Notes under the pieces: model-generated
The model's database searches: none
Told to the model about the DNA's origin: nothing
The model's input: the letters and a program-made list of their open reading frames with translations, nothing else
Assembly: GCA_963668695.2 (NCBI GenBank)
Contig: CAXXLQ010000004.1
Coordinates: 3,040,001-3,104,000, forward strand
Length of the DNA: 64,000 bases
DNA from: Vicinamibacteria bacterium
GTDB lineage: Bacteria; Acidobacteriota; Vicinamibacteria; Marinacidobacterales; Marinacidobacteraceae
Direction of reading: 5' to 3'
Translations under genes and position numbers: made by a program
Shown here: piece after piece, positions 2,907 to 58,605 of the stretch
Layout: each line of letters opens with the position of its first letter
Numbering within the stretch: position 1 is the first letter of the stretch

Positions 2907-2915
2907 CGGGCGGTT

Positions 2916-2996
2916 TCAGGGCCGCGGCCCGCCCGTGCCGAACCCGGTCACGCCGATCCGGCGGGGGACGTAGTGATCGGGATCCACCGTCCGACG
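2916..2996 (-). pseudogene. Remnant of an amidohydrolase paralog 3' end
   Basis: Encodes RTVDPDHYVPRRIGVTGFGTGGPRP*, nearly identical to the C-terminus ending at 4494. Confidence 0.7.
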
Positions 2997-3025
2997 GCAG
3001 AACCTGCGGCCGTGACCCTCCCGGA

Positions 3026-4120: not shown

Positions 4121-4255
4121 CGTCTGCTTTGTCCGTTCCCACTCTCGGTGGCGGTTTAGCCTACCCGCACCGTCCCGCCGCCGCATCCGAGGGTGAAGCC
4201 GGGGACGGTGGCGAAACTGGCGCAGTTCCCCTTTCCGCGACGCCGCGGGCGCTGC

Positions 4256-4497
4256 CTAGCAGCCTGTGGATAAAGTGACGTGAGCGCCGAGGCCCCCACC
4301 GGGAGAACTGGCCGGTGAGGCGCCCGGCTGACAAGGCGCGTGAGGGAGGAGCCCCCACCGGGAGAACTGGCCCGGGTGTATTCCGACTGAAACGCAACGC
4401 AGAGCGCCGCAAAGCGGCGCGGTTCAGGCGGGATGCATCGCCGGTCGAGCCCCCACCGGGAGAACTGGGCCGCGTGACTCTGTCCACAGGCTGCTAG
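4256..4497. mobile_element. MITE-like element, copy 1
   Basis: Terminal inverted repeats CTAGCAGCCTGTGGA...TCCACAGGCTGCTAG; shared core GCGCCCGGCTGACAAGGCGCG. Confidence 0.8.
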
Positions 4498-5836: not shown

Positions 5837-5898
5837 GGGGAAGTTCCTCCGGAACCCGATGGTATGTTCAGGACGCCACGCGGGCGAAGGAGAAGACC

Positions 5899-8420: not shown

Positions 8421-9272
8421 TTACTCCGGATCGTTCATCCGCACGAGGATCAGCGTAGCGAACGGCCTTTCCCGGATGCCCGAGGGCAGTTCGCGGATGG
8501 GACCGATCGGCGCGTGCGGGGTCACGTCGGCGTCCGAGGCCGTGAAGGTCGCCCCGCTGTCGGTTCCGGCGTCGTAGCCAACGAGTTCCAACTCGATCCG
8601 CTCCCGCCAGCAGCCTTCGTCTTCCATCAGGGGCACCCCGTTCACCCCGACGAACCAGTCCGGGCTGGGGGCGATCATCGAGACCAGAGTCACCAGCGGC
8701 CGCTCGGCGTCGGCGTCGAAGGCGAACGAGACCGATCCGGGCGACCGAAACGACGACTCGGCGCTGTTCAGGCAGAGGCCGCTGCGCCCGCGGTCGGCTT
8801 CCGCCTGGATCTCCCGGCAAAGTGTGGACACGCTCCCGGTCTCCGCCATGCTCTCGATGCCCGGCGTTGCGATCCCGCCGGGGTTCCAGAACGAGACCTC
8901 CGGCAGGTGGGTGGCCCCGACCACGCGGGAGAAATGCGCCCCGGACGGGAAGGGCGGGCGGTTGCCGTGCGACGCCGCGCCCCAAACCGCCCGGAAGGTC
9001 ACCCCGTACTGCGCCGATGCCGGACATTCGGGCGCCGGGGTAGGCATCGGTTCCGGGGTGGGCATCGGCTGCGGGGCGGGGGCGGGGGTCTCCACCGGCG
9101 CGGGGGCTGACGGGGGTGCGGGCGGGACGGCCGGCGCCTCGGCGCCACAAGCGAGCACCAGGAGCACGGGGGCTGCCCGGAGTGGGCCGCAGGCGACTCG
9201 GAAGGACGGCGCAAACATTCGCCAGGAAGCTACCGCGACCTCCGGCCGGCGCCCCGCGGTGATTGCGGTCAA
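8421..9272 (-). CDS. Spondin_N domain lipoprotein
   Basis: HFSRVVGATH, MAETG, SMIAPSPDWFVG, YDAGTDSG; lipobox LVLAC; Pro-rich linker; start uncertain. Confidence 0.88.
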   Translation of the reverse strand: MTAITAGRRPEVAVASWRMFAPSFRVACGPLRAAPVLLVLACGAEAPAVPPAPPSAPAPVETPAPAPQPMPTPEPMPTPAPECPASAQYGVTFRAVWGAASHGNRPPFPSGAHFSRVVGATHLPEVSFWNPGGIATPGIESMAETGSVSTLCREIQAEADRGRSGLCLNSAESSFRSPGSVSFAFDADAERPLVTLVSMIAPSPDWFVGVNGVPLMEDEGCWRERIELELVGYDAGTDSGATFTASDADVTPHAPIGPIRELPSGIRERPFATLILVRMNDPE

Positions 9273-10417
9273 TCGGACGCTGGCCCGAGGACGAAGAGCG
9301 TCCCGTCCTGGGTGCCGAAGACGATACGCCCGCCGGCTATGGCGGGCGAGCCCATGATGGCCGCACCGGCGTGGAATTCGAAGACCTTCTCCCCGGTCTC
9401 GAGATCCAGCACGTAGAGGCGGCCGTCGGCGTTGCCGACGTACACCCGGTTTCCTGCCACCGCCGGGGAGGCGTCGAAACGGGCGCGGGCGCGGAAGGTC
9501 CAGCGGGCTTCGCCGGTCTCCCGATCAAGTGCATGGACCAGCTTGTCCCGGCCGGCGACGATCACGATGTCGCCCGCGACCGCCGCCGAGGCGTAGAAGG
9601 GGAAGTGGCGTTCAGGGTGTTCGTAGCGCCAACGCAGTGCTCCGGCCCCAACATCTACCGCCAGCACCTCGTTGTTGAAGGTGCCGTAGTAGAGCGTGTC
9701 GTCGAGGATTGCCGGGGACGCGGCGGTGTAGGCGCCCGAGTCGAAGCGCAGCATCTCGGTTCCGTCCGTGATCCGGACCCCGCGCAGCACGGCGTCGCAT
9801 CCCGTGACCCAGGCAAGCCCGTTCGCCCTGCCCGGGGTGGCGTGCACCGGCCCCTCGGTCTGCAACTTCCAACGGAGTTTGCCGGTGGTCCGGTCCACGG
9901 CATAGAAGTGTTCGTCATAGCTGCCGATCAGCACCAGATCGTCCGCCACGACGGGGGAGGACTTGATCTCGGCGCCGGTCGGGAAGCGCCACCGAACCTC
10001 GCCGGATTCCACGTCCACCGCGTGCAGGACCCCGAGCAGGTCTCCGACGAACACGGCGCCGCCCGCAACCGCCGGCGAGGATTCCCCGAAGCGATCCTCC
10101 TCGAACTCTCCCGCTGCGGCTTCGGTGGCGCCGGGGCGATAGCGCCAAGCCTCGGCGCCGTCTTCGAGATTCAGCTTTACCAGCACTCCCGGGAGGGAGG
10201 TGGCGTAGACGAAGCCACCCACTACGGCCGGCGAGGATTCCACCGAGAAGCCGAGCGGCACGCTCCATTTCAACTCGAGCTCGTCAGGAAGAAGGGAAGC
10301 CGCGATTCCAGTGAGCGCCGCGTCCCGCCGGAACTGGGGCCAGTCGGAGCTGTCCTGGGCAATTGCGCCGGGTGCGAGCGCAAGCAGGAGGGCGGATCGG
10401 AGAGCGACGCGACGCAT
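9269..10417 (-). CDS. PQQ-binding-like (BamB-type) beta-propeller protein
   Basis: Signal peptide, DWPQFR, repeated SSPAV / G-x-x-x-W blades; TGATG overlap with the upstream ADH. Confidence 0.88.
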   Translation of the reverse strand: MRRVALRSALLLALAPGAIAQDSSDWPQFRRDAALTGIAASLLPDELELKWSVPLGFSVESSPAVVGGFVYATSLPGVLVKLNLEDGAEAWRYRPGATEAAAGEFEEDRFGESSPAVAGGAVFVGDLLGVLHAVDVESGEVRWRFPTGAEIKSSPVVADDLVLIGSYDEHFYAVDRTTGKLRWKLQTEGPVHATPGRANGLAWVTGCDAVLRGVRITDGTEMLRFDSGAYTAASPAILDDTLYYGTFNNEVLAVDVGAGALRWRYEHPERHFPFYASAAVAGDIVIVAGRDKLVHALDRETGEARWTFRARARFDASPAVAGNRVYVGNADGRLYVLDLETGEKVFEFHAGAAIMGSPAIAGGRIVFGTQDGTLFVLGPASD

Positions 10418-11565
10418 CAGACGCAGGAACGATAAACGGCCAGCGCGCCGGCGGCATCGAAGGGGCGCGGGTTGAAACGGCCGGTCCATTCGCGGGACGC
10501 TTCCTCGGCGAGGGCGGGAAGGTCGTCCGGCCGCACGCGCGCTTGGTCGAGGTTCTCGGGCAAGTCGGCCAGGACGACCCACTCTTCAAGATGCTTGGCG
10601 AGTGTTTCCGCCGCATTGCCGCCGGGAGGGATCTCCGCTGCCTCCAACAGTTCCCGATAGGCGGCGTCCGCCGCGGGCGCGTTCCACCGGACGACCCGCG
10701 GCAGGGTGATGGCCAGGGCCCGGCCGTGCGCCACCTCGAAGCGCCGGGTCAGCGGGTTCGCGCAGGCGTGGGCGGCGCCGAGCATGGACCGCTCGATCGC
10801 GGCGCCGGCGAGGAAGGCCCCGAGCTGCATGTCTTCCCATTCGGCGGCGTCCGCCTCGCCCGCGACGGCACACGGAAAAGCGCGGCTCAGGAGCGCGAAA
10901 GCTCGGTGACTCAGGACGAGTGATTCTTCGGTATGCCCGGAGGTCACCGCCGTTTCCACTGCGTGCGCCACGGCATCGAACCCGGCGGCGGCGATCACCT
11001 CCGGCGGCGCCGAGGGCAGAAGCCGCGGATCCAGGATCACGGCCCGGAACATCGCGGTAGGAGCCCCACAGGCGAGTTTCTGATGGTCCCGGTCCCGGGA
11101 GATGAGGGCATAGGACTGGGCCTCGCTTCCGGTTCCGGCGGTCGTCGGAACGCCCAACAGCGGAGGCAAGGGACGGGGGCACTTGCCGTAGCCTCGATAG
11201 TCCTCCATGCGGCCGCCGCCAGCCAGGAGGAAGCCGGCTCCTTTCGCGACATCCAGCGAACTGCCACCCCCGACCCCGGCGAGAGAGTCGGCGTCCATCC
11301 GGCGGGCGGCTTCGGCGGCCCGGACCACGTCGGATTCGGTGGGGTTTTCGCCGAAGTCGGAGAAGGACTCCGCGTGGACGTCTGCGGCCCTGAGCCTCGC
11401 CACCGCCCGGCCGGTGATCCCCGCGTCCACGATTCCCGGGTCGGAGGTAACGAGAGTCCGGCGGAAACCCAGCTGCGCAGCGACCTCCCCGAGTGACGCG
11501 AGCGCCCCCGCTCCGGAATGAACGAGCGGGGAGGGGCCGCTCGGGAGCCGCCAGGATTGGGGCAT
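10417..11565 (-). CDS. Iron-containing alcohol dehydrogenase
   Basis: GGGSSLDVAK, PTTAGTGSE, DAVAHAVE, GAAHACA, HG metal ligands. Confidence 0.92.
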   Translation of the reverse strand: MPQSWRLPSGPSPLVHSGAGALASLGEVAAQLGFRRTLVTSDPGIVDAGITGRAVARLRAADVHAESFSDFGENPTESDVVRAAEAARRMDADSLAGVGGGSSLDVAKGAGFLLAGGGRMEDYRGYGKCPRPLPPLLGVPTTAGTGSEAQSYALISRDRDHQKLACGAPTAMFRAVILDPRLLPSAPPEVIAAAGFDAVAHAVETAVTSGHTEESLVLSHRAFALLSRAFPCAVAGEADAAEWEDMQLGAFLAGAAIERSMLGAAHACANPLTRRFEVAHGRALAITLPRVVRWNAPAADAAYRELLEAAEIPPGGNAAETLAKHLEEWVVLADLPENLDQARVRPDDLPALAEEASREWTGRFNPRPFDAAGALAVYRSCV

Positions 11566-11594
11566 GGACGTGCTCCGTCCGAACGCCGGTCGGG

Positions 11595-13052
11595 TCAGCG
11601 TCCTTCGGTGGTCGTGTCCTGGTCCTCGATGGCGAAGAGCTGGTTGCGGCTCGCGATGTAGAGGACGCCGTTTGCGGGGACGGCAGTCGAATAGACGGAA
11701 CTCCCCATGTTCATCTCGGCGATCACTTCCTCGGCCGGCCCTGGCCGGAGCACCACGACATCGCCGTCCTCGTCGCCGAGGTACAGCTTGCCGTCCGCGA
11801 TGAGCGGGGAGGCCCAGACCGCCGCGAAGGTGTCGTGGACCCAAAGAGGCTCTCCGGTATCGACGTCCAGGGCGTGGAGGAAGCCGGAAAAATCGGGCAG
11901 GTAGAGGATGCCGTCCTTCACCGCACCCGTGGCGATGGTGCGCCGGATGGTGTCGTAGTGCCAGAGGCGGCCCGTCTCGGTGATGTCGCCGCGCTTGGTG
12001 GCGTCAATCGCGTAGAGGTGGCCGACTCCCTCGCCGTGTTCCGGATCTTGCCCGTTGGCGATGAAGAGGCGATCGTTCAGGATCACCGGGGTGGAGATCA
12101 CGTTGTTCCGGGTCCGCGGCCAGACGGCGTCATCCGGGTTGGTGTTGAACCACCAGAGGGTCTCCCCGGTGTCCGCCACGTAGCCCCGGACCCAGCCGTC
12201 CCCTTCGCCCATGATGACCTGGGTGATTCCGCCAACCTCCGCGACGCCCGCGGAAGACCACTGGCCGTGAAGGATGTTCTCCCCGACGTGGTTCTGCTCC
12301 CAGACGAGTTCCCCGGTCTCCTTGTCCACCGCGATGATCGCGGGCGATAGCGGCGACGGGATGTTGGCGTGGGTTTCGTCGTGGCCGTTCGAGGCGTTGA
12401 CGAAGAGCAGGTTCCCGTACGCAACCGGGCTGGCGTTCGACATGTTGTGGGGAAAGGAGCCGATCTCCTCCATCATGTCCAGTTTCCAGATAACGTCCCC
12501 GTCGGTCGGGGACTGGAGCGCTTCGTCGGTTACCGGGCCGTCGTTGCCGTTCGCCATCCCGTGAACGTCGAGCGCCAGCAGTTCGCCCCGGTTCGTGACG
12601 TAGTAAAGACGGTCGCCTTCCACCAGCGGAGAGGAGCAGACCCCCTGGTAGGGCCAGTCGTTGACCCGGCCGGAGACGAGCTTGTCAGAGACCATCTGCC
12701 ACAAGAACTCGCCCGTGGCGGCATCGAACGCGATCAGGACGCCCTTGTCTCCGATGATTTCCTTGTCGTAGAGGGCCTCGTTGTTCGTGCCGACGAATAC
12801 CCTTCCTCCGGCAACGACGGGGTTGCCGTAGGTCTGCGACCCGAGGGGGGCCACCCAGCGGACGTTGGTTCCACTGTCCACGTCCCATTCGGCCGGAAGC
12901 CGGGCCGTGGTGTCGGAAACCATGTTCCGGTCGGGCGTGCCTCCCCACATCGGCCAGTCCTGGGCCGTTGCGCTGCCGGCGGCGCTCAGAAGGAGCGCGG
13001 ACAGGGGCAGCGCCGCTGTTGCCGCGCGGCGCTGTGAGTTCGGTCGGAACAT
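11595..13052 (-). CDS. PQQ-like beta-propeller protein
   Basis: Signal peptide, DWPMWGG, repeated blades. Confidence 0.88.
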   Translation of the reverse strand: MFRPNSQRRAATAALPLSALLLSAAGSATAQDWPMWGGTPDRNMVSDTTARLPAEWDVDSGTNVRWVAPLGSQTYGNPVVAGGRVFVGTNNEALYDKEIIGDKGVLIAFDAATGEFLWQMVSDKLVSGRVNDWPYQGVCSSPLVEGDRLYYVTNRGELLALDVHGMANGNDGPVTDEALQSPTDGDVIWKLDMMEEIGSFPHNMSNASPVAYGNLLFVNASNGHDETHANIPSPLSPAIIAVDKETGELVWEQNHVGENILHGQWSSAGVAEVGGITQVIMGEGDGWVRGYVADTGETLWWFNTNPDDAVWPRTRNNVISTPVILNDRLFIANGQDPEHGEGVGHLYAIDATKRGDITETGRLWHYDTIRRTIATGAVKDGILYLPDFSGFLHALDVDTGEPLWVHDTFAAVWASPLIADGKLYLGDEDGDVVVLRPGPAEEVIAEMNMGSSVYSTAVPANGVLYIASRNQLFAIEDQDTTTEGR

Positions 13053-13067
13053 GCGGTGTTCTCCCAG

Positions 13068-15269
13068 TTACTCGCCGGGGTCCACGACGATGTTGTCGAA
13101 GAAAACCTCGGCGGACACCGCGTCGGCGAAGATCCCCGGAGTGCCTTCGCGGTGCGGCAATTCTTCGCGCCACTCGAGCGTCCAGTCGGCGGGCTCGCCA
13201 TCGCCGCGGGGCCACACCTTTCCGCGGGCCACGACTCCGCCTTCGTCCTCCACAACCTGGAACTTCATCGAGTACCAGGTGTCCGGCTCCCACGCGAAGG
13301 GCATCTGCGTCGTTCGACCCGGAGTCGCCTGCCAGGACTGGATTTCAAGCCGCTGATGCGACCCCATGAGCACGAACTGGTACCGCTGGGCGACGAGGCC
13401 CGCGTTTCCCATCTGGCGGCGGCGCGTTTTCGCCAGGACGTCCGCCGACACCGTGTATCCCGAGAGCGTCGGGGGACCCATGTAGACGCGGGCGCGGCGC
13501 AGGAAGGGGTTGTCCGCCCGCTTGACGAGCACCCGCTGCCCATCCTCCAGCGTGCGGGTTTCGTACTTGCCGGCGGAGTTCACCCACACCGCGGGCACCC
13601 GCGAATCCTCGGCGTCGAAATCCCAATTCCAGGGCAGGGGAGGAACCACCCGGAACCGCGCGGATCCACTGATTTCGCCGACACTCGCGGTCACGCTTCC
13701 GGCGCCCGCCGCAGCATCCGCCATCACCTGCAGCGTGTTTCCTTCGACGCCGCCTGCGAAACCCGTCACCGACCAGGTCAGATCGCCGGGAGCGTCCACC
13801 GGATTGCCGAGCGCATCGAACACCCGCGCGGTCAGGGCGATCTCGTCGCCGGGGGCCAGGATCTCCTCCGTCGGTGAGAGCACCAGACGGGCAGGCGCTC
13901 CTCCGGGGCTTTCCGGCGGCGACGGGGCCTCTGCATCCGGCGCCGGCCGCCGTTCGCCGATCGCGTAGAGCGCGCCGCTTGAGACCACGTACACCACACC
14001 GTCACTGACCGCTGCCGAAGCGATGATCTCGTCCGCGATCTCTTCGGAACCGAGCACGTCTTCGTCGAGCACTTCCACGCCTTCGCGCGACGGACGCAGG
14101 ATGAAGAACCGTCCGTTGCCCGTTCCCACGTAGAGCTTGCCGTCCGCGAGCACCGGAGAGGCGCGCTGGATGGTGCCCAGGTTGTGGGTCCAGAGGCGCG
14201 CGCCGTCCGCCGTCGAGAAGGCCGCCAGGTTGGCGCTGTTGTCGATCTGGTAGAGGAGATCTCCGTCCCCGACGCCCGAGGAATACCCTCCCAGGAATCC
14301 GGGCACCTGCCAGAGCGGCGCTTCTTTACCAATTTCCCCCGCTGAAGTAGCGTCGAGAGCGGCGACCAGACCCATCATCGAAGAGTTCAGGTTCTCCTCG
14401 CCGTGGCTCACCACGGCCACGTCTCCAAAGAGCAGAGCGCCGGTGTTCACTCCCCGCTTGCTCATCGGAAAGTTCCAGACCGAGGCGCCGGTCGCCGGCT
14501 GGATCGCATGAAAGGCGCCATCACCCCCGCCGACCAGCAGCAGCCGCTGGCCGTCAATGGTTCGTACGGAAGCCGGCGAGTAGGTCGTGTCGAAGGGACG
14601 GCCGCCGGGCGCCGAGAACCAGACCATCTTCCCGGTCCGCTTGTCGAAAGCGAAGAACCGCTGACTCCCGCGGGCGTGTTCCCCCCACGAAGAGGTCAGG
14701 CCGCTGAGGATCACCAGGTCGTCCAGGATCAATGGCGATGCGGTCCGGCCGCCGTGGGTAGTGACCAGGCCGAGCTCCTCGGGGAGCGAACGCTCCCAGC
14801 GGAGATGCCCGTCGGCGGCGTCGAAGGCGCTCAGGCTGCCGCCCAGGGTGAAAAAATACACCGTTCCGGTTTCGGCGTCCGCCGCCGGAGACGCCCAACC
14901 GACGCGGCGGGGCGGGGCGTCGGAGTGGTAGATGTTCCGCCGCTGCTCCCAGAGCAGATCTCCGGTGCCGGCGTCGAGGGCCACCAGGCGTTCCTGCCGG
15001 GTCTCCCGATCGCCAACGCCGTGCTGCAGGAACAGGCGGTCACCGAGGATGACCGGGGTCGAACGACCGCCGTACGGAGCCTTGAAGAGCAGGTTTTCGC
15101 CGTCGGGGGACCAGGACTCGGGAAGTCCGGTTTCCGAAGAACGCCCGTCACGGTCAGGTCCGCGGATTTCCGGCCAATCGGAAGCGAAGAGGGAGGCGGC
15201 AAAAAAGAAAGCCACTACCCCCGCGGCGGCCGCTGCCGGAACGCCGCGGCGAGTGGTTCCGAGATCCAT
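13068..15269 (-). CDS. PQQ-like beta-propeller with Ig-like and C-terminal concanavalin-like domains
   Basis: DWPEIRGP, blades, Ig-like segment, C-terminal PDTWYSMKF...VFFDNIVV; start uncertain. Confidence 0.82.
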   Translation of the reverse strand: MDLGTTRRGVPAAAAAGVVAFFFAASLFASDWPEIRGPDRDGRSSETGLPESWSPDGENLLFKAPYGGRSTPVILGDRLFLQHGVGDRETRQERLVALDAGTGDLLWEQRRNIYHSDAPPRRVGWASPAADAETGTVYFFTLGGSLSAFDAADGHLRWERSLPEELGLVTTHGGRTASPLILDDLVILSGLTSSWGEHARGSQRFFAFDKRTGKMVWFSAPGGRPFDTTYSPASVRTIDGQRLLLVGGGDGAFHAIQPATGASVWNFPMSKRGVNTGALLFGDVAVVSHGEENLNSSMMGLVAALDATSAGEIGKEAPLWQVPGFLGGYSSGVGDGDLLYQIDNSANLAAFSTADGARLWTHNLGTIQRASPVLADGKLYVGTGNGRFFILRPSREGVEVLDEDVLGSEEIADEIIASAAVSDGVVYVVSSGALYAIGERRPAPDAEAPSPPESPGGAPARLVLSPTEEILAPGDEIALTARVFDALGNPVDAPGDLTWSVTGFAGGVEGNTLQVMADAAAGAGSVTASVGEISGSARFRVVPPLPWNWDFDAEDSRVPAVWVNSAGKYETRTLEDGQRVLVKRADNPFLRRARVYMGPPTLSGYTVSADVLAKTRRRQMGNAGLVAQRYQFVLMGSHQRLEIQSWQATPGRTTQMPFAWEPDTWYSMKFQVVEDEGGVVARGKVWPRGDGEPADWTLEWREELPHREGTPGIFADAVSAEVFFDNIVVDPGE

Positions 15270-32597: not shown

Positions 32598-32620
32598 GGG
32601 CGGATCTGGGCCAGCGCTAC

Positions 32621-32708
32621 CTGGCAGCCGGTGGTGAAACCCAGGCGGCCCGGTTCTCCCGGTGGGGGCTCCTCCCTCACGCGCCTTGTCAGCCGGGCAG
32701 GCTGCTAG
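32621..32708. mobile_element. MITE-like element, copy 2 (internally deleted)
   Basis: CTGGCAGCCGGTGG...CAGGCTGCTAG with core CGCGCCTTGTCAGCCGGGC. Confidence 0.72.
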
Positions 32709-34512: not shown

Positions 34513-34689
34513 CCAGGAGCCCGCAGTGAAATCCACGCGGCGTTCGGCCGGCGATCCATCCCGGCTGAACCGCGCCGCTCATCGTTGCGTTTCAGTCGGA
34601 ATACACCCGGTATTCCTCCCTCACGCGCCTTGTCAGCCGGGCGCCTCCCCGGCCTCGGCGCTCACGTGGGTTCCACCACAGGCTCCTAG
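34513..34689. mobile_element. MITE-like element, copy 3
   Basis: Same core; right end CCACAGGCTCCTAG; degenerate left end. Confidence 0.75.
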
Positions 34690-36950: not shown

Positions 36951-37313
36951 CGGCCTGTGAACAAAGTCACGCGGCATTCCCGAGCCAGAAGGGATGGTGG
37001 TCGGGTGATCCCGCCCCCCGTCCCTTCCGCTCCGGGGTCTCCGCGGTGCTCCCGCCCCGCTCCGGAAGCCCGAGTCAAGAGGGATCGGGGTCGGGTGATC
37101 CCGCCCCCCGTCCCTTCCGCTCCGGGGTCTCCGCGGTGCTCCCGCCCCGCTCCGGAAGCGACCGGCGATGCATCCCGGCTGAGCCGCGCCTCTACGAGGC
37201 GCTCATCGTTGCGCTTCGACCGAAATACTCTCGGTATTCCTTCCTCGCGCGCCTTGTCAGCCGGGCGCCTCACCGGTCTCGGTGCGCACGCCACCTTGTC
37301 CACAGGCTGCTAG
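36947..37313. mobile_element. MITE-like element, copy 4, with internal 2 x 90 bp tandem duplication
   Basis: CTAGCGGCCTGTGAAC...TCCACAGGCTGCTAG; units near 36979-37068 and 37069-37158. Confidence 0.8.
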
Positions 37314-38434: not shown

Positions 38435-38589
38435 TTAACAACCGGTGGTGAAACCCACGCGGCGTTTGCGTTTGGGTCGAAATACACCCGGTATTCCTCC
38501 CTCACGCGCCTTGTCAGCCGGGCGCCTCGCCCCCACCGGGAGAACTGGCCGGCCTCGGCACTCACGCGGGCTCCACCACAGGCTGTTAA
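38435..38589. mobile_element. MITE-like element, copy 5
   Basis: TTAACAACCGGTGG...CCACAGGCTGTTAA; same core. Confidence 0.77.
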
Positions 38590-38612: not shown

Positions 38613-39050
38613 CTAAAGCCGCATCTTGGCCGGGAAGTGGTTCAGCCCGAGGCGTATAGCGGTACGGTCCGTCTGGTCCACGATCGCGGCGGCGTTGATG
38701 CCGATCGCGATGACGATCGCTTCGCTGATCTCTTCCTTGGTGGCCCCGAGTTTGAGGGCCTTCTTCACATGACCGTCGAGGCATCCCTCGCACTTGGCGA
38801 TTAGCGAGCAGGCGAGCGCGATGAGCTCCTGAATCTTCGGATCCAGATGCTTGTTCTCCGAAAAATAGGTCTCTTTGTAGAACTGACCGTAGATGGCCTT
38901 CATCCGCGGCTCGATCATCGAATACGACGTCAGCGCCGAGCCGTTGTTCTTCTGTCCGCCGCTTTTTTCTTTTTCGCCGCTCCCGCGCTGCTCCGGCTCG
39001 GAGTCGATGCCGGGGATCCGGGCCTCGGGGGCCGCTGCGTTGTCCGCCAT
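38613..39050 (-). CDS. Carboxymuconolactone decarboxylase / AhpD-like protein
   Basis: LDPKIQELIALA..CEGCLDGH..GATKEEISE; start uncertain. Confidence 0.87.
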   Translation of the reverse strand: MADNAAAPEARIPGIDSEPEQRGSGEKEKSGGQKNNGSALTSYSMIEPRMKAIYGQFYKETYFSENKHLDPKIQELIALACSLIAKCEGCLDGHVKKALKLGATKEEISEAIVIAIGINAAAIVDQTDRTAIRLGLNHFPAKMRL

Positions 39051-39166
39051 TCCGGATGTTGCCTCATGCCCGCCACTCTGGCCGGGACTTCGTCTCGGGG
39101 GGACGGCGGGTGGAGCGGCCGCTTGTCTGGCGCCGCCCGCTCAGCGCGTCGAAAAGGGAGTAACCG

Positions 39167-39655
39167 GTGAAGGTTAGCATCAGGGAAACGATGCAGACCT
39201 TTCGATGTTCCGTAGCCTTGACGGCTCCGCTCGACGCGGTCTTTGGGTTCTTTTCGAACACCAGGAATCTGGAGGTGCTGACCCCGCCGTGGCTCCGCTT
39301 CCGGGTACTCACAGAAGGAGAGATCCCGATGTCCCGCGGCACGCAGATCGACTATCGGCTGCGGCTTCGCGGTCTACCGCTCCGGTGGCGTAGCGAGATC
39401 ACCGCGTGGGAGCCGCCGCATCGCTTTGTGGACGAACAGGTAGCTGGCCCCTACCGGAGCTGGGTTCATGAACACCGCTTCGAGGCCCGCGAGCGGCCGG
39501 GCAGGGACCCGGTGGTGGTCGCTCATGATGAAGTGCACTACCAGGCCCCGGGCGGAAGGTTCGTGAACCGGTTCCTGGTTGCGCCTGACCTCGAACGAAT
39601 CTTCGCCTACCGCACCAAACGGCTGAGGGAGCGGTTCGGAACGCCCGGCGGCTGA
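39167..39655 (+). CDS. SRPBCC family protein
   Basis: NLEVLTPPW, FVDEQVAGPYRSWVHEHRF, IFAYR. Confidence 0.87.
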   Translation: MKVSIRETMQTFRCSVALTAPLDAVFGFFSNTRNLEVLTPPWLRFRVLTEGEIPMSRGTQIDYRLRLRGLPLRWRSEITAWEPPHRFVDEQVAGPYRSWVHEHRFEARERPGRDPVVVAHDEVHYQAPGGRFVNRFLVAPDLERIFAYRTKRLRERFGTPGG

Positions 39656-39774
39656 TGGCTCTCGTGGGGCGGGGGCCAGAACGACTCAACCCGGGGCAAA
39701 CGGCCGGCGCCCGCCCGCAAACCCGGGCGGGCTTCTCGGACAGGGTGCCGCGAGTGCCTTGAGAATTGCTGCTG

Positions 39775-39820
39775 CTCGCCGCCTGCGGCGGCGAGTGCCG
39801 GTCTGAAGACCGGCGTTCCC
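39775..39820. repeat. REP-like double hairpin
   Basis: CTCGCCGCC-TGC-GGCGGCGAG and GCCGGTCT-GA-AGACCGGC-GTTCCC; related inverted copy near 57624-57686. Confidence 0.6.
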
Positions 39821-39823
39821 AAG

Positions 39824-40299
39824 CCGCGCCAGCGGCTTCGGATAAGCACCGCCTCCTTCATCGGAAGTCGCGAAGGGCTGTCCTGGGTCCGGATCGTGGC
39901 TCAATCCCGATCGGAAGTCGCCCTCGCGACTTCGCATCCGCAGCCATGTCGCACCGGGGGCCCGCCCGCATATCAGGGCGCGCTTATCGGACGCCGCGCC
40001 AGCGGCTTCGGATAAGCACCGCCTCCTTCATCGGAAGTCGCGAAGGGCCGTCCTGGGTCCGGATCGTGGCTCAATCCCGATCGGAAGTCGCCCTCGCGAC
40101 TTCGCATCCGCAGCCATGTCGCACCGGGGGCCCGCCCGCATATCAGGGCGCGCTTATCGGACGCCGCGCCAGCGGTCGGACGCCGCGCCAGCGGTCTTCG
40201 GATAAGCACCGCCTCCTTCATCGGAAGTCGCGAAGGGCCGTCCTGGGTCCGGATCGTGGCTCAATCCCGATCGGAAGTCGCCTTCGCGACTTCCGATAA
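39824..40299. repeat. Tandem ~170 bp repeat (about 2.7 units) rich in XerC-arm-like half-sites
   Basis: GATAAGCACC recurs at 39841, 40011 and 40201; third unit runs into dif. Confidence 0.9.
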
Positions 40300-40316
40300 G
40301 GATGCTTATGTTAAAT
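40289..40316 (+). other. dif: dif site (XerC/XerD recombination site)
   Basis: ACTTCCGATAA-GGATGC-TTATGTTAAAT: 11-6-11 layout; right arm identical to the E. coli XerD arm; GGGCAGGG polarity flips here. Confidence 0.88.
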
Positions 40317-40358
40317 AACGAGGACAGTGAGCCGCGTCGTCCCGGAGAACAGCGGACA

Positions 40359-41258
40359 TCACCCCTGCTCGCGAAACGCCGTCACGTCGCGGTGGAAGAC
40401 GAATAGCGAATCCATGTCTTCCGACGGCGATTCGAAGTTGTAGGTTCGCCCGCCAAGCACCTTCACACGCAGGTTGTTGCTCAGGTAGTCCAGCTCGAAG
40501 CGTTCCGCCTGTGCGAACGGCAACTGGAAAGCATCCTTGTGATCCGTCCGGTAGTCGAACCCCTGGGGAGTTGCGACGAGCGTCCCTTCGCAGGATCCGA
40601 ACCGATGTTTGTGTACCACGGCCACCTTGACGTCCAGTGACGCCACCAGGTCGCCGAACACCACTCGCACCGGCACCGCTCTCCTTTCGACCGCCACCCG
40701 ACGGGAAACGATGTCGTGCCCCTCGGTAGACACCGTCAGGTTGTACTCCCCGGGCTGAAGATCCGCGATCGTGACCGGGGTGTTTCCCTTGAAGTTCCGG
40801 TCGATAAAGACGTTCGCTCCGGCGATGTCACTCTCCACGACGATGGACCCGAGCATTTCGGCGAGGGTCGCCGCCAACGAGCGGGTGCGGCCACCGCGGA
40901 TGGTGACGCTGACCTCCAGGGGATGGAAGCCTTCCTTCTCCACTCGAACCGGGTACTCACCGGCATCCAGGTCTTCCCAGGTGCCCGGAACCGTGCCAAG
41001 CACCCGGCCGTCCAGAATGACACTGGCGCCATCGGTGCCCTCGATCTGCAGGGTACCGGTGGTGGGCGGTGCCGGCGGTGGCGGCGGTGGCGCTCGCTCT
41101 GGTTCCGGCGCCTTGACCGGCGTCTCGTCGGCCGGTGCGGCTTCTTCCTCCGGGGCCGCAGGCTCCTCGCCTCCCCCACATCCTGCCAAGGCGCCGACCC
41201 CCGCCAGCAGGGCCAGTGACCCGAAGAGAATGCGCGCCCACTCAGCGAGGCGAATCAT
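40359..41258 (-). CDS. PEGA-domain lipoprotein
   Basis: LAGC lipobox; two repeats GASVILDG...G-T-P and GANVFIDRNFKGNTP. Confidence 0.85.
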   Translation of the reverse strand: MIRLAEWARILFGSLALLAGVGALAGCGGGEEPAAPEEEAAPADETPVKAPEPERAPPPPPPAPPTTGTLQIEGTDGASVILDGRVLGTVPGTWEDLDAGEYPVRVEKEGFHPLEVSVTIRGGRTRSLAATLAEMLGSIVVESDIAGANVFIDRNFKGNTPVTIADLQPGEYNLTVSTEGHDIVSRRVAVERRAVPVRVVFGDLVASLDVKVAVVHKHRFGSCEGTLVATPQGFDYRTDHKDAFQLPFAQAERFELDYLSNNLRVKVLGGRTYNFESPSEDMDSLFVFHRDVTAFREQG

Positions 41259-41760
41259 TCACGGAGCCCCCCACCTCACGGTAACCCCGGTCGTAGTAGA
41301 GAAGCGGTGCGGCGTCCTCCCGCTCTACCCTGCCCTCGGTCACCCGGCCGATGAACAGCGTGTGATCGCCCTCCCGGTGGGCGCCGACCGTGCTGCACTC
41401 GAGCCAACCGATACAGCCGGACAGTCGTGGCGGGTACCCAGCCCCGCCAGCCGCCACCGCTGCAGCAAGAGACTCGCCGAACTGATCGGCCGAGTCCAAC
41501 CCCGGCTTCGCGAAGTGGCCCGAGACGTCAGCCTGATCAGCAGCGAGAAGGTGCACCCGAAATCCCCCGGCGGCGATCGCAGCATGCGCCCGGGCGGCGT
41601 TCATGATGGAGACGAGCACTAACGGCGGTTCGAGACTCACGGGGATGAACGAACTGACGGTGATCCCTCTCGGCCCCTCTGGACCGCTCGCGGTCACGAC
41701 GGTCACAAGTTGCGGAGCGCGGCGCATCAGAGCACGAATCTCCGAGGCCGCGTCGCTCAT
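41242..41760 (-). CDS. Flavin reductase family protein
   Basis: VTVVTA, GITVSSF..VSLEPP, GDHTLFIG, PLLY. Confidence 0.92.
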   Translation of the reverse strand: MSDAASEIRALMRRAPQLVTVVTASGPEGPRGITVSSFIPVSLEPPLVLVSIMNAARAHAAIAAGGFRVHLLAADQADVSGHFAKPGLDSADQFGESLAAAVAAGGAGYPPRLSGCIGWLECSTVGAHREGDHTLFIGRVTEGRVEREDAAPLLYYDRGYREVGGSVNDSPR

Positions 41761-43568: not shown

Positions 43569-44444
43569 CTATCCTGTTGATTCACCTTCGCTTGTGTCCG
43601 ATGTCGGCGCGCCGACATCCTCACGTTGTTCTTCAAGCTGCCGTAACAACGTGCGGAGTGCCTCCACCACTTCCGCCTCCTCGACCTCACTGCGCCGGAA
43701 GGTCAACTGGAGGCGAAAGGGGCCGCCCTTGGGGGCGAACCGGAAGACAAACGGTCGCGCTCGTTCTCCCTTGGACTTTCTGCGCTTCGGGATCGGTTCA
43801 TTCAGTCCCTGGGCGAGGCGTTGGACGCACGCCAGCATGGCCTCGACATTCGGCTCGCGGGCCACTCGCAGCAACTGTCGACGAGACACGATCCCCGACG
43901 CCCAGGAGACCTCGCGGATCTCTTCCGGAATGTTGAGCAGGGCAAGCGTCTCCGTGATCGAGGTGCGTCCTTTGCCCACCCGGCGGGCGAGAGAGTCGTG
44001 AGTGTGTCCATGCTCCCTGATGAGCCCCTCGTACGCGGTGGCCTCCTCAAAGGGAGACAGGTCGTCCCGGAGCAAGTTCTCCACCAGAGCCAGCTCGAGG
44101 GCGTCCCCTGCCCCCGCCTCCCTCTCGATGCAGGGCACTTCGCGCAATCCGGCCAGCACCGCCGCCCGGTAGCGGCGTTCGCCAGCGATGATCTGAAAGT
44201 CCTTCGAGCCCAGTCGGCGCACCAGGATCGGCTGCAGGATTCCCTGGTCCCGGATCGAGGTGGCGAGCGGTTCCAGCGCTCCGATGCGTTGGCGCGGCTG
44301 ATCGGGATTGGGGTGGATCTGAGCGGTTGGGATCATCCGTTGACGGGCGCCCGGCTCATCGGGGGTCAGCCCCGCCACGTAGTGGCTGTCACGCGGTTTC
44401 AAGCTGACTTTTTCAGGAAGACCGGTTCGTTTGGACACGGGCAA
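43569..44444 (-). CDS. parB: ParB/Spo0J family protein
   Basis: NPDQPR, LQPILVR, IAGERRYRA, ENLLRDDL, HTH. Confidence 0.9.
   Translation of the reverse strand: MPVSKRTGLPEKVSLKPRDSHYVAGLTPDEPGARQRMIPTAQIHPNPDQPRQRIGALEPLATSIRDQGILQPILVRRLGSKDFQIIAGERRYRAAVLAGLREVPCIEREAGAGDALELALVENLLRDDLSPFEEATAYEGLIREHGHTHDSLARRVGKGRTSITETLALLNIPEEIREVSWASGIVSRRQLLRVAREPNVEAMLACVQRLAQGLNEPIPKRRKSKGERARPFVFRFAPKGGPFRLQLTFRRSEVEEAEVVEALRTLLRQLEEQREDVGAPTSDTSEGESTG
43600..43619. promoter_or_regulatory. Perfect palindrome, candidate non-canonical parS
   Basis: GATGTCGGCGCGCCGACATC in the 3' end of parB; function inferred only. Confidence 0.4.
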
Positions 44445-45189
44445 GCACCTCCCGAGACAGATGTCGGTAATCCTCAGCTCCTCGAGAGTTGGGGGCGAAC
44501 GTGAAGATGGACTCCTTGTACGCAGGACTCTCCTCGAGTCGGACGTTGCGGCTGATCAGCGTTCGGAATACCGCTTTCCCGAAATGCCCGCGGATCTTGC
44601 GGATCGCGTCCCGGGCAATCCGCGTCCGCTGATCGGCCATGGTGATCACCACCCCGAGGATGGACAGATCCGGATTGGGGCGCCGGCGGACCTGCTCGAG
44701 CGTGTCGAGGAGATCGTCGGCCCCTTCGAGGGCGTAGTACGTCGGCGGCAGCGGCAACAACAGATAGTCACTGGCAACCAGCGCATTCACCGTGATGAGC
44801 CCCAGGGTGGGAGGGGTGTCGATCACCACGAAATCGAACTGCTCCCGGACATACTGGATCCGATCCCGGAGCCGGTAATGGGCGTCGATGTCGCCAAGAA
44901 GTTGGCGCTCCAATTTGGCCAGCGAGATGCGCGCCTCGGCCACCGACAGGCGTTCCACCGATGTGGGCCTGATGATGTCCGCGAACCGCACCTCACCCGT
45001 CAGAGCCTCGAGCATTGAGGCTCTGGATGGGTCCGGGCCGATGACACTTACCGAGGCGTTTGCCTGTGGGTCCACATCAACGAGCAGCGTGCGGTGTCCG
45101 GCGTCCGCGAACGCCGCCGCCAGGTTGACCGCGGTCGTGGTCTTGGCCACCCCGCCCTTCTGATTGGCGACGGTGATGGTGGCGCGCAT
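44413..45189 (-). CDS. parA: ParA/Soj family ATPase
   Basis: NQKGGVAKTTT, DVDPQAN, IDTPP. Confidence 0.92.
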   Translation of the reverse strand: MRATITVANQKGGVAKTTTAVNLAAAFADAGHRTLLVDVDPQANASVSVIGPDPSRASMLEALTGEVRFADIIRPTSVERLSVAEARISLAKLERQLLGDIDAHYRLRDRIQYVREQFDFVVIDTPPTLGLITVNALVASDYLLLPLPPTYYALEGADDLLDTLEQVRRRPNPDLSILGVVITMADQRTRIARDAIRKIRGHFGKAVFRTLISRNVRLEESPAYKESIFTFAPNSRGAEDYRHLSREVLARVQTNRSS

Positions 45190-45367
45190 TTAGCAGCCTG
45201 TAGACAAAGTGACGTGAGCGTCGAGGCTGGGGAGGCGCCCGGCTGACAAGGCGCGATTTGGGAGGAATACCGGATGTATTCCGACCGAATCGGAACACAG
45301 AGCGTAGCGGTTCAGCCGGGATGCATCGCCCGCCGAACGCCGCGTGACTTTGTCCACAGGCTGCTTG
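45190..45367. mobile_element. MITE-like element, copy 6, abutting the parA ATG
   Basis: TTAGCAGCCTGTAGACAAAG...CTTTGTCCACAGGCTGCTTG; same core. Confidence 0.8.
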
Positions 45368-45371
45368 GTGC

Positions 45372-55633: not shown

Positions 55634-56330
55634 CCGTCGGGCGGCCCTGGGGCGGGGCGCCGGAAGATCGGGACAGAACAACGACCAAGGAGACGGAGTG
55701 GTGCGCCCCACCCCAGGGCCGCCCGGCGCTCCGCGCCGGGATCGCAACTCCCTTGCACGCCTTCGGCGCGCGGCGGCGAGTTTCGATTCGACGTCGTCTT
55801 TTTGTGAAAGGGGGAGGTCCCCCTTTCACACTTTCTCCCCGATCTCGCGGGCAGCGAACGGAGTTCGCTGCCGTCAGTTTTTATTGCTTGCTTGGCCGGA
55901 CACCACCTTAGGGCGGGGCGCCGGAAGATCGGGACAGAACAACGACCAAGGAGACGGAGTGGTGCGCCCCACCCCAGGGCCGCCCGGCGCTCCGCGCCGG
56001 GATCGCAACTCCCTTGCACGCCTTCGGCGCGCGGCGGCGAGTTTCGATTCGACGTCGTCTTTTTGTGAAAGGGGGAGGTCCCCCTTTCACACTTTCTCCC
56101 CGATCTCGCGGGCAGCGAACGGAGTTCGCTGCCGTCAGTTTTTATTGCTTGCTTGGCCGGACACCACCTTAGGGTGGGGCGCTGGAAGATAAGGACCGAA
56201 CAACGACCAAGGGGACGGAGCGGGGCGCCGCGCTTCTGAAGTGCGGCGAGAGCCGCACGGAGACCTCGGAGCAGAAGGGGTTGGGGTCGGGGAACCCGGC
56301 GCCCAGCCGCTCCTGGCTCGGGCTTCGAAA

Positions 56331-57359
56331 GGGGATTACATACCTGAGTGACCATTTTTGGCTCTAGGCTCGCCTAGAGTCAGGTGCATGGCACACAGCG
56401 CACCCGGGAAGCACTACCGCAAGGGTCTCACCTTGCCGCAGGTCATGCGGACGTTCCGCGATGACGCCGCCGCTGAGCGATGGTTCGCCAAGGTCCGGTG
56501 GCCCGACGGCCCCCGCTGCCCCGGCTGCGGAACCGCCGACGTCCGGGCCGGGACGGCGCACAAATCCATGCCTTACCGCTGCCGCCCCTGCCGCCGCTAC
56601 TTCTCCGTCCGCATCGGCACCGTCATGGAGGACTCGAAGCTCGGCTACCAGACCTGGGCGCTCGCCATCTACCTCCTCACCACCGGCCTCGAAGGCCAGT
56701 CCTCCATGAAGCTCCACCGCGACCTCGGGATCACGCAAAAGTCGGCCTGGCATCTGGCCCACCGGATTCGGGAGACCTGGCGCGACGCACCGGCGCCCTT
56801 CGGGGGACCCGTCGAAGTGGACGAGGCCTACATCGGAGGGAAGAGGAGGAACATGAGCCTGGCCAAGAGGAGGGAAATGGCCGGCCGCGGACCCGTCGGA
56901 AAGACGATGATCGCCGGCGCCCAGAACCGGAAGACCGGCGAGATCAACGCCGCCGTCCTTCCCGACGGGACTTGGCGCGCCCTCCGGGAGTTCGTCCGGG
57001 AAGCGGCGGTGCCGGGTGCCCAGCTCTTCACGGACGACTCGGACGCCTACTCGGCTTTGCCGGAGTTCCGGCATGAGAGCGTCCATCACACGGTCCGGGA
57101 ATACGTCCGCGGGGAGGTTCACACGAACGGCATCGAAGCCTTCCGGTCGCTGCTCAAGCGGGGCTATGTCGGCACCTATCACCGCATGAGCCCGAAGCAC
57201 CTGGGTCGCTACGTGGACGAGTTCGCCGGCCGCCACAACATCCGGAGTGCCAACACCGTGGAGCAGATGCGAACCATCTCCCGCGGGTTCCTCGGACGAA
57301 GGCTGGAATACGCCACCCTCATCGCCACCCGGTGATGGTCACTCAGGTATGTAATCCCC
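56331..57359 (+). mobile_element. IS1595 family insertion sequence
   Basis: Perfect 25 bp TIR GGGGATTACATACCTGAGTGACCAT; flanks CTTCGAAA / AATCGAAA. Confidence 0.93.
56388..57335 (+). CDS. IS1595 (ISXO2-like) transposase
   Basis: Zn ribbon CPGC..CRPC; VEVDEAY, TDD, HTNGIE, YVDEF. Confidence 0.93.
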   Translation: MAHSAPGKHYRKGLTLPQVMRTFRDDAAAERWFAKVRWPDGPRCPGCGTADVRAGTAHKSMPYRCRPCRRYFSVRIGTVMEDSKLGYQTWALAIYLLTTGLEGQSSMKLHRDLGITQKSAWHLAHRIRETWRDAPAPFGGPVEVDEAYIGGKRRNMSLAKRREMAGRGPVGKTMIAGAQNRKTGEINAAVLPDGTWRALREFVREAAVPGAQLFTDDSDAYSALPEFRHESVHHTVREYVRGEVHTNGIEAFRSLLKRGYVGTYHRMSPKHLGRYVDEFAGRHNIRSANTVEQMRTISRGFLGRRLEYATLIATR

Positions 57360-57927
57360 AATCGAAACTCCCTGGCGCGCCATCGGCGCGCTGCGGCGAG
57401 TTCCGATTCGACGTTGTCAATTTGTGAAAGGGGGAGTTCCCCCTTTCACACTTTCCCCCCAATCTCGTGGGCAGCGAACAGAGTTCGCTGCCGTCAGTTT
57501 TTGTTGCTTGCTTGGCCGGACATCACCTTAGGGTGGGGCGCTGGAAGATAAGGACGGAACAACGACCAAGGGGACGGAGCGGTACGCCCCGCCCCAGGAC
57601 CGGCCGGCGCTCCGCGCCGGGAAGGGAACGCCGGCCAGTCCTCCCGGTGGAGCCTTCAGACCGGCACCGCGGCCCGCAGGGCCGCGAAAGCCTCGCCATC
57701 CGCTGGCATGGCGGGCACAGCGTCCTCCTCCCTCATTGCGCCGTCGGCACCAGGCATCTCCAGCTTTCCGCCTCAAACCCCCACCAAACGTGGTGTACCC
57801 GCCCCGCAAAGAGATCGCCCCACGCAGCGGGGCGAACGCTCCGCCAACTTTTCCTCATTAGCCCATCGTCGCCACCTGACGGCGAGGTGCTGTGCCAACC
57901 CGGGAAAGCTCCATCCTCTTCAATCTG

Positions 57928-57960: not shown

Positions 57961-58605
57961 GTGCCCAAAACCCCGCCGGGACAGACCCGGAACCGGATCT
58001 TTCACTTCGTCCGCGACCGCCTGCTTCAGGGCGACTCCCCTTCCCTTCGTGAGGTACAGCGGCATTTCGGTTTTCGGGCCGTCGAGACCGTCCGGGCCCA
58101 TCTCACCGCTCTCGTGGGAGAAGGACGCCTGGTCAAGGAATCGGGTCGTTCCCGCGGCTATCGGTTGCCTTCGGCGTCAGGCCAAGCGTCGAGCCAAACG
58201 TCGAGCTGGTCTCCCAACCGCCTTCAGCCGGTCCCCCTTCTGGGCGAAGTCGCCGCCGGCGGTTTCGAAGAGGCCATCGAGAACCCGGAGGGGAATCTCC
58301 CGGTAGAGATTCCCGATTCCCGGGACCTCTCGGACTATTTCGCACTCCGGGTGCGAGGGGAAAGCATGTCCGGGGCCGGCATCCTGCCCGGCGACACCGT
58401 CATCGTCGAACGCCAAGGGGCGCCAGTTTCCGGTCAGATCGTGGTGGCGCTCCTCGAAGAGGAAGCCACGGTGAAACGGCTCTACCTGGGGCAAGACGGG
58501 ATGGAACTGCGTCCGGAGAATCCCGCCTTCAAAACGCTCCGTCCACCTCCCGGGTCCTGTCGGATTCTCGGGAGAGTCGTGGAATTGCGCCGCCAATTCC
58601 GCTGA
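57961..58605 (+). CDS. lexA: LexA repressor
   Basis: PSLREV wHTH, VAAG cleavage site, GESM (Ser), TVKR (Lys). Confidence 0.93.
   Translation: MPKTPPGQTRNRIFHFVRDRLLQGDSPSLREVQRHFGFRAVETVRAHLTALVGEGRLVKESGRSRGYRLPSASGQASSQTSSWSPNRLQPVPLLGEVAAGGFEEAIENPEGNLPVEIPDSRDLSDYFALRVRGESMSGAGILPGDTVIVERQGAPVSGQIVVALLEEEATVKRLYLGQDGMELRPENPAFKTLRPPPGSCRILGRVVELRRQFR

Follow-up and report, generated by a model that had tools for sequence, protein, structure and literature searches.

The window analyzed here, a 64-kb stretch (64,000 nucleotides) of the genome of a Vicinamibacteria bacterium, contains a single full dif site of canonical type, with exact matches to both recombinase arms. Its two 11-bp arms show partial dyad symmetry around a 6-bp centre, in line with the definition of dif-type sites, and it is non-coding, unique within the window and located at the shift point of the GC skew: over the 64 kb, the cumulative skew rises to a maximum at 32-40 kb and then declines, with dif lying near the maximum. 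Two convergent genes flank the site, and a run of minus-strand genes follows beyond the right-hand one. The turn of the skew together with the genes converging on dif has the look of a replication terminus. The core site and its neighbours are the following:

39167-39655, plus strand: SRPBCC / polyketide cyclase-like gene left of dif, reading towards it (Pfam PF10604, E 3.7e-07)
40289-40316, plus strand: dif core, 28 bp
40289-40299, plus strand: XerC arm of dif, ACTTCCGATAA
40300-40305, plus strand: central region of dif, GGATGC
40306-40316, plus strand: XerD arm of dif, TTATGTTAAAT, the single XerD-arm match of the window
40359-41258, minus strand: PEGA-domain protein gene right of dif, reading towards it (Pfam PF08308, E 3.9e-28)

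On the XerC side we found the tandem array of ~170-bp units ending in dif that had previously been described from the letters alone (hereafter, the sequence-only reading). It consists of two complete units of 170 bp, which agree at 99%, followed by an incomplete one reaching the XerC arm, which makes 2.65 units in the window. Tandem Repeats Finder (TRF) delimited a repeat at 39823-40175 (period 170, 2.1 copies, 99% matches) and a second one, a 19-bp duplication, at 40157-40196; a repeat search returned three 170-nt copies with identities of 100%, 99% and 68%, the third of which diverges from the start of dif. Arm matching within the window showed that each unit contains half-sites resembling the XerC arm (h1 to h5), in both orientations and tied to dif, and every coordinate given before for those of unit 1 (39835, 39858, 39908, 39929 and 39984) was correct. 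The elements of the array are listed below:

39706-39741, plus strand: upstream stretch 83% similar to the unit 3' end (repeat search)
39823-39992, plus strand: repeat unit 1, 170 bp
39835-39845, plus strand: unit 1 h1, GCTTCGGATAA
39858-39868, minus strand: unit 1 h2, ACTTCCGATGA
39908-39918, minus strand: unit 1 h3, ACTTCCGATCG
39929-39939, plus strand: unit 1 h4, ACTTCGCATCC, read off a 12-mer match at 39926-39937
39984-39994, minus strand: unit 1 h5, GCGTCCGATAA, extending into unit 2
39993-40162, plus strand: repeat unit 2, 170 bp, 99% identical to unit 1
40005-40015, plus strand: unit 2 h1
40028-40038, minus strand: unit 2 h2
40078-40088, minus strand: unit 2 h3
40099-40109, plus strand: unit 2 h4
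40154-40164, minus strand: unit 2 h5
40150-40228, plus strand: conserved block, dif-proximal copy (h5, 10 bp, h1, 11 bp, h2)
40163-40288, plus strand: partial unit 3, its h4 position being the true XerC arm of dif
40176-40195, plus strand: 20-bp insertion in unit 3 (20-column gap in the unit alignment; TRF period-19 repeat 40157-40196)
40195-40205, plus strand: unit 3 h1
40218-40228, minus strand: unit 3 h2
40268-40278, minus strand: unit 3 h3
40264-40303, plus strand: palindrome holding the XerC arm (inverted h3 and flank, 4-nt loop CTTC, flank and XerC arm)

The proposal that the unit-3 counterpart of 39929 is the real dif arm was borne out, as 39929 plus 170 plus 190 leads to 40289, where an exact ACTTCCGATAA is followed by GGATGC and TTATGTTAAAT; the homology of unit 3 to units 1 and 2 stops at 40293, five bases into this arm. 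The palindrome at 40264-40303 has 18-nt arms that are 89% complementary and separated by 4 nt (repeat search), and in unit 3 the loop and stem of the h5/h1 palindrome have been duplicated locally, giving the 20-bp insertion. The stretch at 39706-39741 may be the degraded remnant of an older unit, or else a hairpin of terminator type belonging to the upstream gene. The core module spans ~118 bp, with half-sites of alternating orientation placed on the XerC side at a fixed distance from dif and separated by steps of 21-22 bp (~two helical turns) and a single step of ~49 bp. Taken over the species compared, the steps measure 20-23 bp, ~49-50 bp and, in places, 37, 41 or 55 bp. The array is gene-less, as had been stated: neither a 177-aa ORF at 39766-40299 nor three antisense ORFs belong to a Pfam family (best E 0.072), and the unit lengths (170, ~130 and ~133 bp) vary by species and are not multiples of three. 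A coding region was discarded on these grounds.

Partition genes are usually placed near the origin. In the window, genes for ParB (43569-44444) and ParA (44413-45189), together spanning 43569-45189 on the minus strand, lie only 3-5 kb from dif on its XerD side, at the terminus indicated by the skew. The flank bearing them is syntenic in two related genomes, L026 and L062, and the match of a third, L008, is broken near its start; the two genes are either an orphan pair or the sign of an unusual chromosome layout. With parA and parB 3-5 kb away, the TTATC-like motifs of the array prompted the idea of an oriC with DnaA boxes. This was rejected, as the skew polarity and the gene orientation are those of a terminus, the XerD arm is exact and the half-sites agree with the XerC arm at 7-10 of 11 positions.

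The concentration of XerC-arm-like sequences beside dif is far from random. Allowing up to two mismatches, the XerC arm has 15 matches in the 64-kb window compared with a mean of 6.92 in shuffled sequences (sd 2.6, largest 13; 15 was reached in 0/100 shuffles), and 12 of the 15 fall within the 465 bp between 39835 and 40299. Likewise, the exact 12-mer GCGACTTCCGAT occurs seven times in the window, always inside 39860-40297. Because the units are copies of one another, only four to five half-sites per unit are independent, a number far above the ~0.02 per 170 bp expected from an estimate derived from the shuffles. The XerD arm, in agreement with the sequence-only reading, is not repeated (one match at up to two mismatches in the window), and the window holds no second site with at least 14/22 arm matches including a good XerD arm. 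All 34 half-sites resemble the XerC arm more closely than they do the XerD arm, a result that is partly circular since they were picked for their XerC-arm likeness.

A scan of genome contigs with the pattern TTCCGATAA-N6-TTATGTTAAAT, requiring exact arms, returned 70 loci with the same arms from many phyla. Those related to the window were L026 (a MAG; ~96% identical), L008 (90-92%, right flank) and L062 (82-88%), all three from Candidatus Marinacidobacterium (Acidobacteriota, Vicinamibacteria), in addition to L009 with one weak 269-bp match; the genus comparison thus comprises four genomes of one genus, the window, L026, L008 and L062. The right flank with the PEGA-domain gene is syntenic in the three relatives and the left SRPBCC-like gene in L026 and L062. 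The array is present in three of the four genomes and the inverted copy at position -21 from the XerC arm in all four. L062 carries ~3.7 units of ~133 bp, older and internally diverged, one of which lacks h5-h1 through a deletion in register between two half-sites; L008 carries ~1.7 units of 130 bp, interrupted inside h2 by an IS256-family transposase gene; and in L026 the -21 copy is the sole remnant, everything left of about -40 having been lost. Comparing the dif flanks across relatives, as the sequence-only reading had advised, therefore reveals a unit number that varies by species (2.65 in the window, ~3.7 in L062, ~1.7 in L008). The half-site offsets from the XerC arm are -113, -92, -70 and -21 in L062, -114, -93, -71 and -21 in L008, and -135 (about -115 minus the 20-bp insertion), -94, -71 and -21 in the window. 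Homologous arrays in three independent assemblies make an assembly artefact unlikely. At the 66 other dif loci, each scanned with its own XerC arm, no array was found (0/66), single matches being scattered there as they are far from dif. Within the genus, variation is found on the XerC side of dif, where the window has the array, L026 a defence island and L008 an IS element; on the XerD side, the four genomes share a constant flank.

The segment that replaces the array in L026 measures 3.4 kb, adjoins dif on the XerC side (10066-13508, locus coordinates) and encodes a three-gene NsnABC defence system (PADLOC; NsnA E 1e-128, NsnB 1e-99, NsnC 2e-54), with a GC content of 60.5% against 64-66% in its flanks. 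We considered whether this island could be an IMEX (integrative element exploiting Xer) that displaced the array and discarded the idea: it has no second dif-like site, and its junction 8-mers, one direct and one inverted, are at about the chance level by our own estimate. In L008, the IS256-family transposase gene (8505-9767, plus strand; Pfam Transposase_mut, E 9e-64) sits inside half-site h2, and to its left a 2121-aa fibronectin/cadherin-repeat protein is encoded (1613-7978, minus strand) where the other genomes have a different left gene; the insertion and the change of left gene indicate that the XerC side of dif has been rearranged in that species.

To determine where else the unit occurs, a profile built from the four full units was searched over the window plus the 70 loci (1,086,578 bases, of which ~124 kb belong to the genus). 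At E<=0.02 every match was adjacent to dif and came from the window, L062, L008 or L026, and all matches elsewhere in the 1,086,578 bases had E>=2, so that the dispersal away from dif of which the sequence-only reading had warned was not seen in the 1.09 Mb searched. A dispersed dif unit would have shown, since an unrelated dispersed intergenic repeat was detected in the same window. This family of ~150 bp has six copies with 64-97% identity in both orientations (4256-4498, 32620-32698, 34534-34689, 37159-37313, 38466-38584 and 45191-45368), is also found in L026, L062 and L008, and is by its look of the MITE or REP-cluster type. The dif unit itself resembles REP/BIME elements in that it consists of clustered imperfect palindromes of alternating orientation, placed intergenically between convergent genes; unlike those elements, which have many dispersed copies, it occurs only at dif in the 1.09 Mb. 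No match was found among 50,697 phage records, and among plasmids there were just four, which are short and look like chance (23-52 nt, E 0.04-0.5); a phage or plasmid origin was rejected on the basis of these two collections. As far as these searches reach, the array is confined to one genus in the DNA covered. A full-text literature search found no XerC half-site array at a chromosomal dif, which agrees with the earlier statement that no equivalent has been described; the portions of Kono et al. 2011 available to us predict dif in three Acidobacteria with no mention there of flanking repeats, and a full-text search by the genus name Candidatus Marinacidobacterium found no paper.

Other features of the window are set apart from dif. 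A 96-bp direct repeat (83% identity; 2918-3013 and 4496-4591) brackets a gene at 3026-4186 and lies directly next to a copy of the dispersed ~150-bp repeat. Between 9269 and 26355, seven paralogous PQQ_2 / BamB-like beta-propeller genes are clustered, and between them lie genes for a prolyl oligopeptidase, a methyltransferase and an ankyrin-repeat protein. A ~261-bp tandem repeat (97% between copies) occupies 55650-56229 and has a further copy at 57361-57622, across an IS1595-family transposase gene (around 56358-57335; Pfam DDE_Tnp_IS1595), beyond which a LexA-like gene is found (57961-58605).

Regarding their origin, the half-site copies derive from dif itself and are not independently evolved binding sites. 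Among 36 arm-like sites besides dif, two of which are chance matches (L008 -217, in the IS, and L026 -518, in the island), the outer GCG is kept in 30 and the inner GGA in 13, and three inverted copies (L008 -21, L062 -379 and L062 -295) carry the whole central region GGATGC. As the copies carry the outer flank and central-region bases, they are duplicates of the XerC half of dif. The -21 copy forms a palindrome with the XerC arm around a 4-nt loop in all four genomes, and h2 with its flank is complementary to the dif flank, arm and GGA (17/17 in the window; a 22-nt stem in L008). The direct copies (h4) retain 7-9 of 11 arm bases and 2-3 of 6 central bases and have no XerD-like arm; presumably, any direct copy still capable of strand exchange with dif would delete itself, so that only dead ones persist.

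The tandem arrangement can be accounted for separately. Units 1 and 2 of the window differ at one position, and the layout is A-B-A-B-A', where A is 109 bp of shared homology; a layout with 109-bp repeats is explained by unequal exchange or slippage, without Xer. Furthermore, on its right side the newest duplication ends within the XerC arm (ACTTC, up to 40293) and not at the XerC cleavage position, which counts against a canonical XerC crossover. The window, L008 and L062 share a homologous B segment (h4 to h5), which is 36 bp longer in the window, and at least 1.65 units must thus have existed before the species split. Units group by genome in the alignment, and the presence of homologous units in three species makes the array older than their split. 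From these alignments, the array is inherited vertically in the genus and is not a recent mobile insertion.

Such duplicates might have no function at all. In that case, fold-back at a quasi-palindrome and slippage would have copied the XerC half of dif both ways and then iterated the unit, and gene conversion with the selected dif arm would keep the copies dif-like. Several observations agree with this neutral origin: (i) the homology of the copies extends past the 11-nt arm into the flank and centre, as duplication predicts and as selection for binding sites does not need, (ii) the palindromes are extended and nearly perfect, (iii) the dif-adjacent loop/flank and the h2 flank vary in step between species, which fits templated correction, (iv) both the 20-bp insertion and the newest duplication go back to ordinary slippage or unequal exchange, and (v) the array was lost in L026 and the non-proximal h3/h4 copies decay. 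However, the spacers of the conserved block have no master copy in dif and are yet almost invariant across three species, adjacent DNA being 57-70% identical, and the offsets from dif are kept in the three species as well. We consider a purely neutral by-product fairly unlikely on balance.

The conserved block measures 58 bp in the relatives and 79 bp in the window, owing to the 20-bp insertion plus one additional base in h2. Across h5-h1-h2, spacers included, 53-55 of 58-60 aligned positions are identical between species (91-95%), compared with 57-70% in the spacer between h2 and h3 taken together with the intergenic sequence to the right of dif (block versus neighbouring non-coding DNA, Fisher p 0.002, 7e-05 and 8e-05 for three pairs that are non-independent). 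Purifying selection specific to the half-sites was rejected: 36 of 44 half-site columns and 52 of 73 other columns are identical (p 0.27), and the comparison of L008 with L062 was not significant either (p 0.096), the reason being that conservation is block-wise. In addition, h2 and h3 of the window lack the inner TTAT that the relatives keep.

Constraint on the block rather than on the half-sites means that another protein could be the ligand. A terminus-specific factor, such as a fork or translocase barrier or a Ter-organising factor, might bind the block, the XerC-arm likeness then being due to duplication only. We know of no candidate protein, and the XerD side has no counterpart of the array; the block-wise conservation including the spacers, the phasing by two helical turns and the location at the terminus would nevertheless suit such a factor. 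In E. coli, PMC2800217 describes recombinase-bound dif half-sites as orientation-dependent stops for FtsK, only with XerD, and reports that XerC alone did not stop FtsK. Overall, binding of the block by some other terminus protein appears a rather slim prospect.

The palindromes also raise the question of whether the array acts as a folded strand. Compared with shuffled sequences, the predicted single-strand fold is stable for 40150-40320 (z -4.1) and for the L008 equivalent (z -5.9), and that of an internal unit is not much better than the shuffles (z -1.9); in these folds the stem consists of the XerC arm and GGA only, and the XerD arm is unpaired. The situation is reminiscent of CTX attP(+), where inverted dif-like sequences fold single-stranded and the stem recreates a duplex XerC site, but here the stem comprises the XerC arm plus 3 nt of the centre with no XerD-binding arm, and it is chromosomal and not on a phage strand. 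A CTX-type folded attP, with duplex arms for both XerC and XerD, is accordingly not what the predicted folds show. Selection for base pairing was rejected: in the two palindromes, both partners have changed in two pairs, which is matched by 103 of 500 shuffles. Two mismatches of the h5/h1 palindrome are kept in 4/4 aligned units, and conserved stem mismatches indicate that the arm sequence is kept and not the pairing.

It is very unlikely, in our view, that a structured RNA or a terminator here shields dif from read-through of the upstream gene. This gene does point at dif and the hairpins predicted for 40150-40320 and L008 are strong; against this, 0 terminator-like and 0 promoter-like sites were detected in 39000-41500, which led us to discard an intrinsic terminator or promoter, and a known RNA family was dismissed because nothing reached an Rfam gathering score (no match better than E 0.67; best 13-16 bits versus gathering scores of 48-80). 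The covariation is weak, the two stem mismatches are conserved, and in L008 the upstream gene differs while the offset of the module from dif is unchanged.

The sequence-only reading had proposed a gene-less mini-IMEX or attP relic amplified by Xer. Such an element would be a ~130-170-bp circle of Xer half-sites integrating at dif and excised from it by XerC catalysis, with tandem pile-up, and it has to be regarded as improbable. Formulated as a non-autonomous, gene-less IMEX using XerC-only strand exchange, possibly as a folded single strand, it would explain the independent changes of copy number in three species, but this version seems to us just as doubtful. As with IMEX (CTX, VGJ and TLC phages; the gonococcal genetic island, GGI), DNA has accumulated at dif, where tandem arrays are possible, and the array stands on the side of dif where IMEX DNA accumulates, the XerD-side flank being constant in the four genomes. 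In L062, moreover, the dif likeness of the direct copies (h4) stops at arm position 10-11 (ACTTCTGATAC, then unrelated), within one base of the arm/central boundary, the sole feature that hints at an old Xer-mediated junction. According to PMC4246890 and PMC5357621, the attachment sites of TLC and GGI keep the XerC arm and central region and have a divergent XerD arm; by analogy, the inverted half-site after each junction could replace a degenerate XerD arm.

Notwithstanding, the direct copies have only 2-3 of the 6 central bases, a homology that XerC strand exchange needs according to PMC4246890. Unlike IMEX, the array has neither genes nor a dif-like attL with central-region homology, that is, no second direct dif-like site with XerC arm and centre was found. 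Unlike an attP, the unit shares >100 bp with the chromosomal dif flank itself, and it was not found beyond one genus or in the phages and plasmids searched: there is no phage match, the four plasmid matches are at chance level and 0/66 other same-arm dif loci carry it, which gives no indication of mobility. The boundary of the window duplication inside the arm and not at the cleavage site, the grouping of units by genome and the homology of the B segment across species, as expected of an old, inherited array, also speak against it, and by our own reasoning a duplex circle of 130-170 bp would be a very strained substrate. Xer-driven amplification of a mobile relic therefore fared poorly, given the boundary inside the arm, the poor direct copies, the 0/66 loci and the homologous units of three species.

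The reading that we tentatively prefer, while giving it somewhat less than an even chance, is that the array is an inherited, dispensable accessory region bound by XerC, whose copy number changes by ordinary unequal exchange. The anatomy of the array, its restriction to dif, its derivation from dif, its conservation across species and its loss in one close relative are observations; that XerC binds there, or that recombination is affected in any way, we infer from sequence likeness. What was duplicated is the XerC half of dif, namely the arm with 3 nt of outer flank, to which the inverted copies add some or all of the central region. The half-sites are predicted to be weak XerC binding sites that would jointly gather XerC beside dif and shape the synapse or the order of strand exchange, with a mode of action like that of the Tn4430 DR1-DR2 motifs or the cer/psi accessory DNA. 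The 2.65 tandem units would be a by-product of recent unequal exchange or slippage between the 109-bp repeats, with no Xer event. The accessory XerC-loading array named as an alternative by the sequence-only reading is compatible with the conserved positions and the 58-bp block.

This accessory role is supported by the canonical dif at the skew turn, the offsets common to three species and the restriction of the array to dif; as judged by likeness, the candidate accessory motifs amount to four half-sites within 118 bp on the XerC side, with offsets kept in the three species. Counting against it are the loss of the inner TTAT from h2 and h3 of the window and a constraint that is block-wise rather than on half-sites. 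The loss of all DNA left of about -40 in L026, which is ~96% identical, shows that the module is not essential. The head-to-head half-site pairs lie 10-11 bp apart, not 6, and dif-like cooperative binding is thus not expected. In PMC2800217, E. coli XerC alone bound half-sites poorly (KD >100 nM) and did not block FtsK, from which isolated XerC half-sites may be barely occupied.

Accessory elements of known systems offer some precedents. In Tn4430, as described in PMC2847244, TnpI binds dispensable accessory motifs beside the core, and these set the selectivity of resolution and the order of strand exchange. Like the Tn4430 IRS (core IR1-IR2 plus DR1-DR2), the array would provide extra recombinase-type motifs on one side, here candidate half-sites that are dispensable in L026; unlike it, a chromosomal dif served by the host XerCD is concerned and not a transposon resolution site, and the half-site copies, recognized here by likeness of sequence, alternate in orientation within a tandemly iterated module. 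The plasmid site cer has ~180 bp of accessory DNA beside its Xer core, and the accessory DNA of cer and psi controls directionality, according to PMC5357621. In contrast to cer and psi, which are plasmid-borne and employ PepA with ArgR or ArcA, the repeated motif of the array is a recombinase half-site and its setting is chromosomal, as synteny indicates. The accessory DNA of cer and psi is placed on the XerC side.

The chromosomal dif is regarded as a bare 28-bp core under FtsK control and, to our knowledge, only plasmid Xer sites and transposon resolution sites are known to possess accessory DNA. Each way of reading the array would bear on this view differently. Taken as a by-product, it documents the seeding of palindromes and tandem repeats at the terminus by the XerC half of dif; if it were a mini-IMEX, it would be the counterpart of a MITE in the Xer world, a parasite of the Xer machinery. 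If, on the other hand, the array is a conserved set of recombinase half-sites belonging to a chromosomal dif, the control of Xer recombination in this acidobacterial lineage may be architectural. Should the accessory reading be true, a lesser or different dependence on FtsK would be possible, and the array would offer a natural system for the choice between XerC-first and XerD-first pathways.
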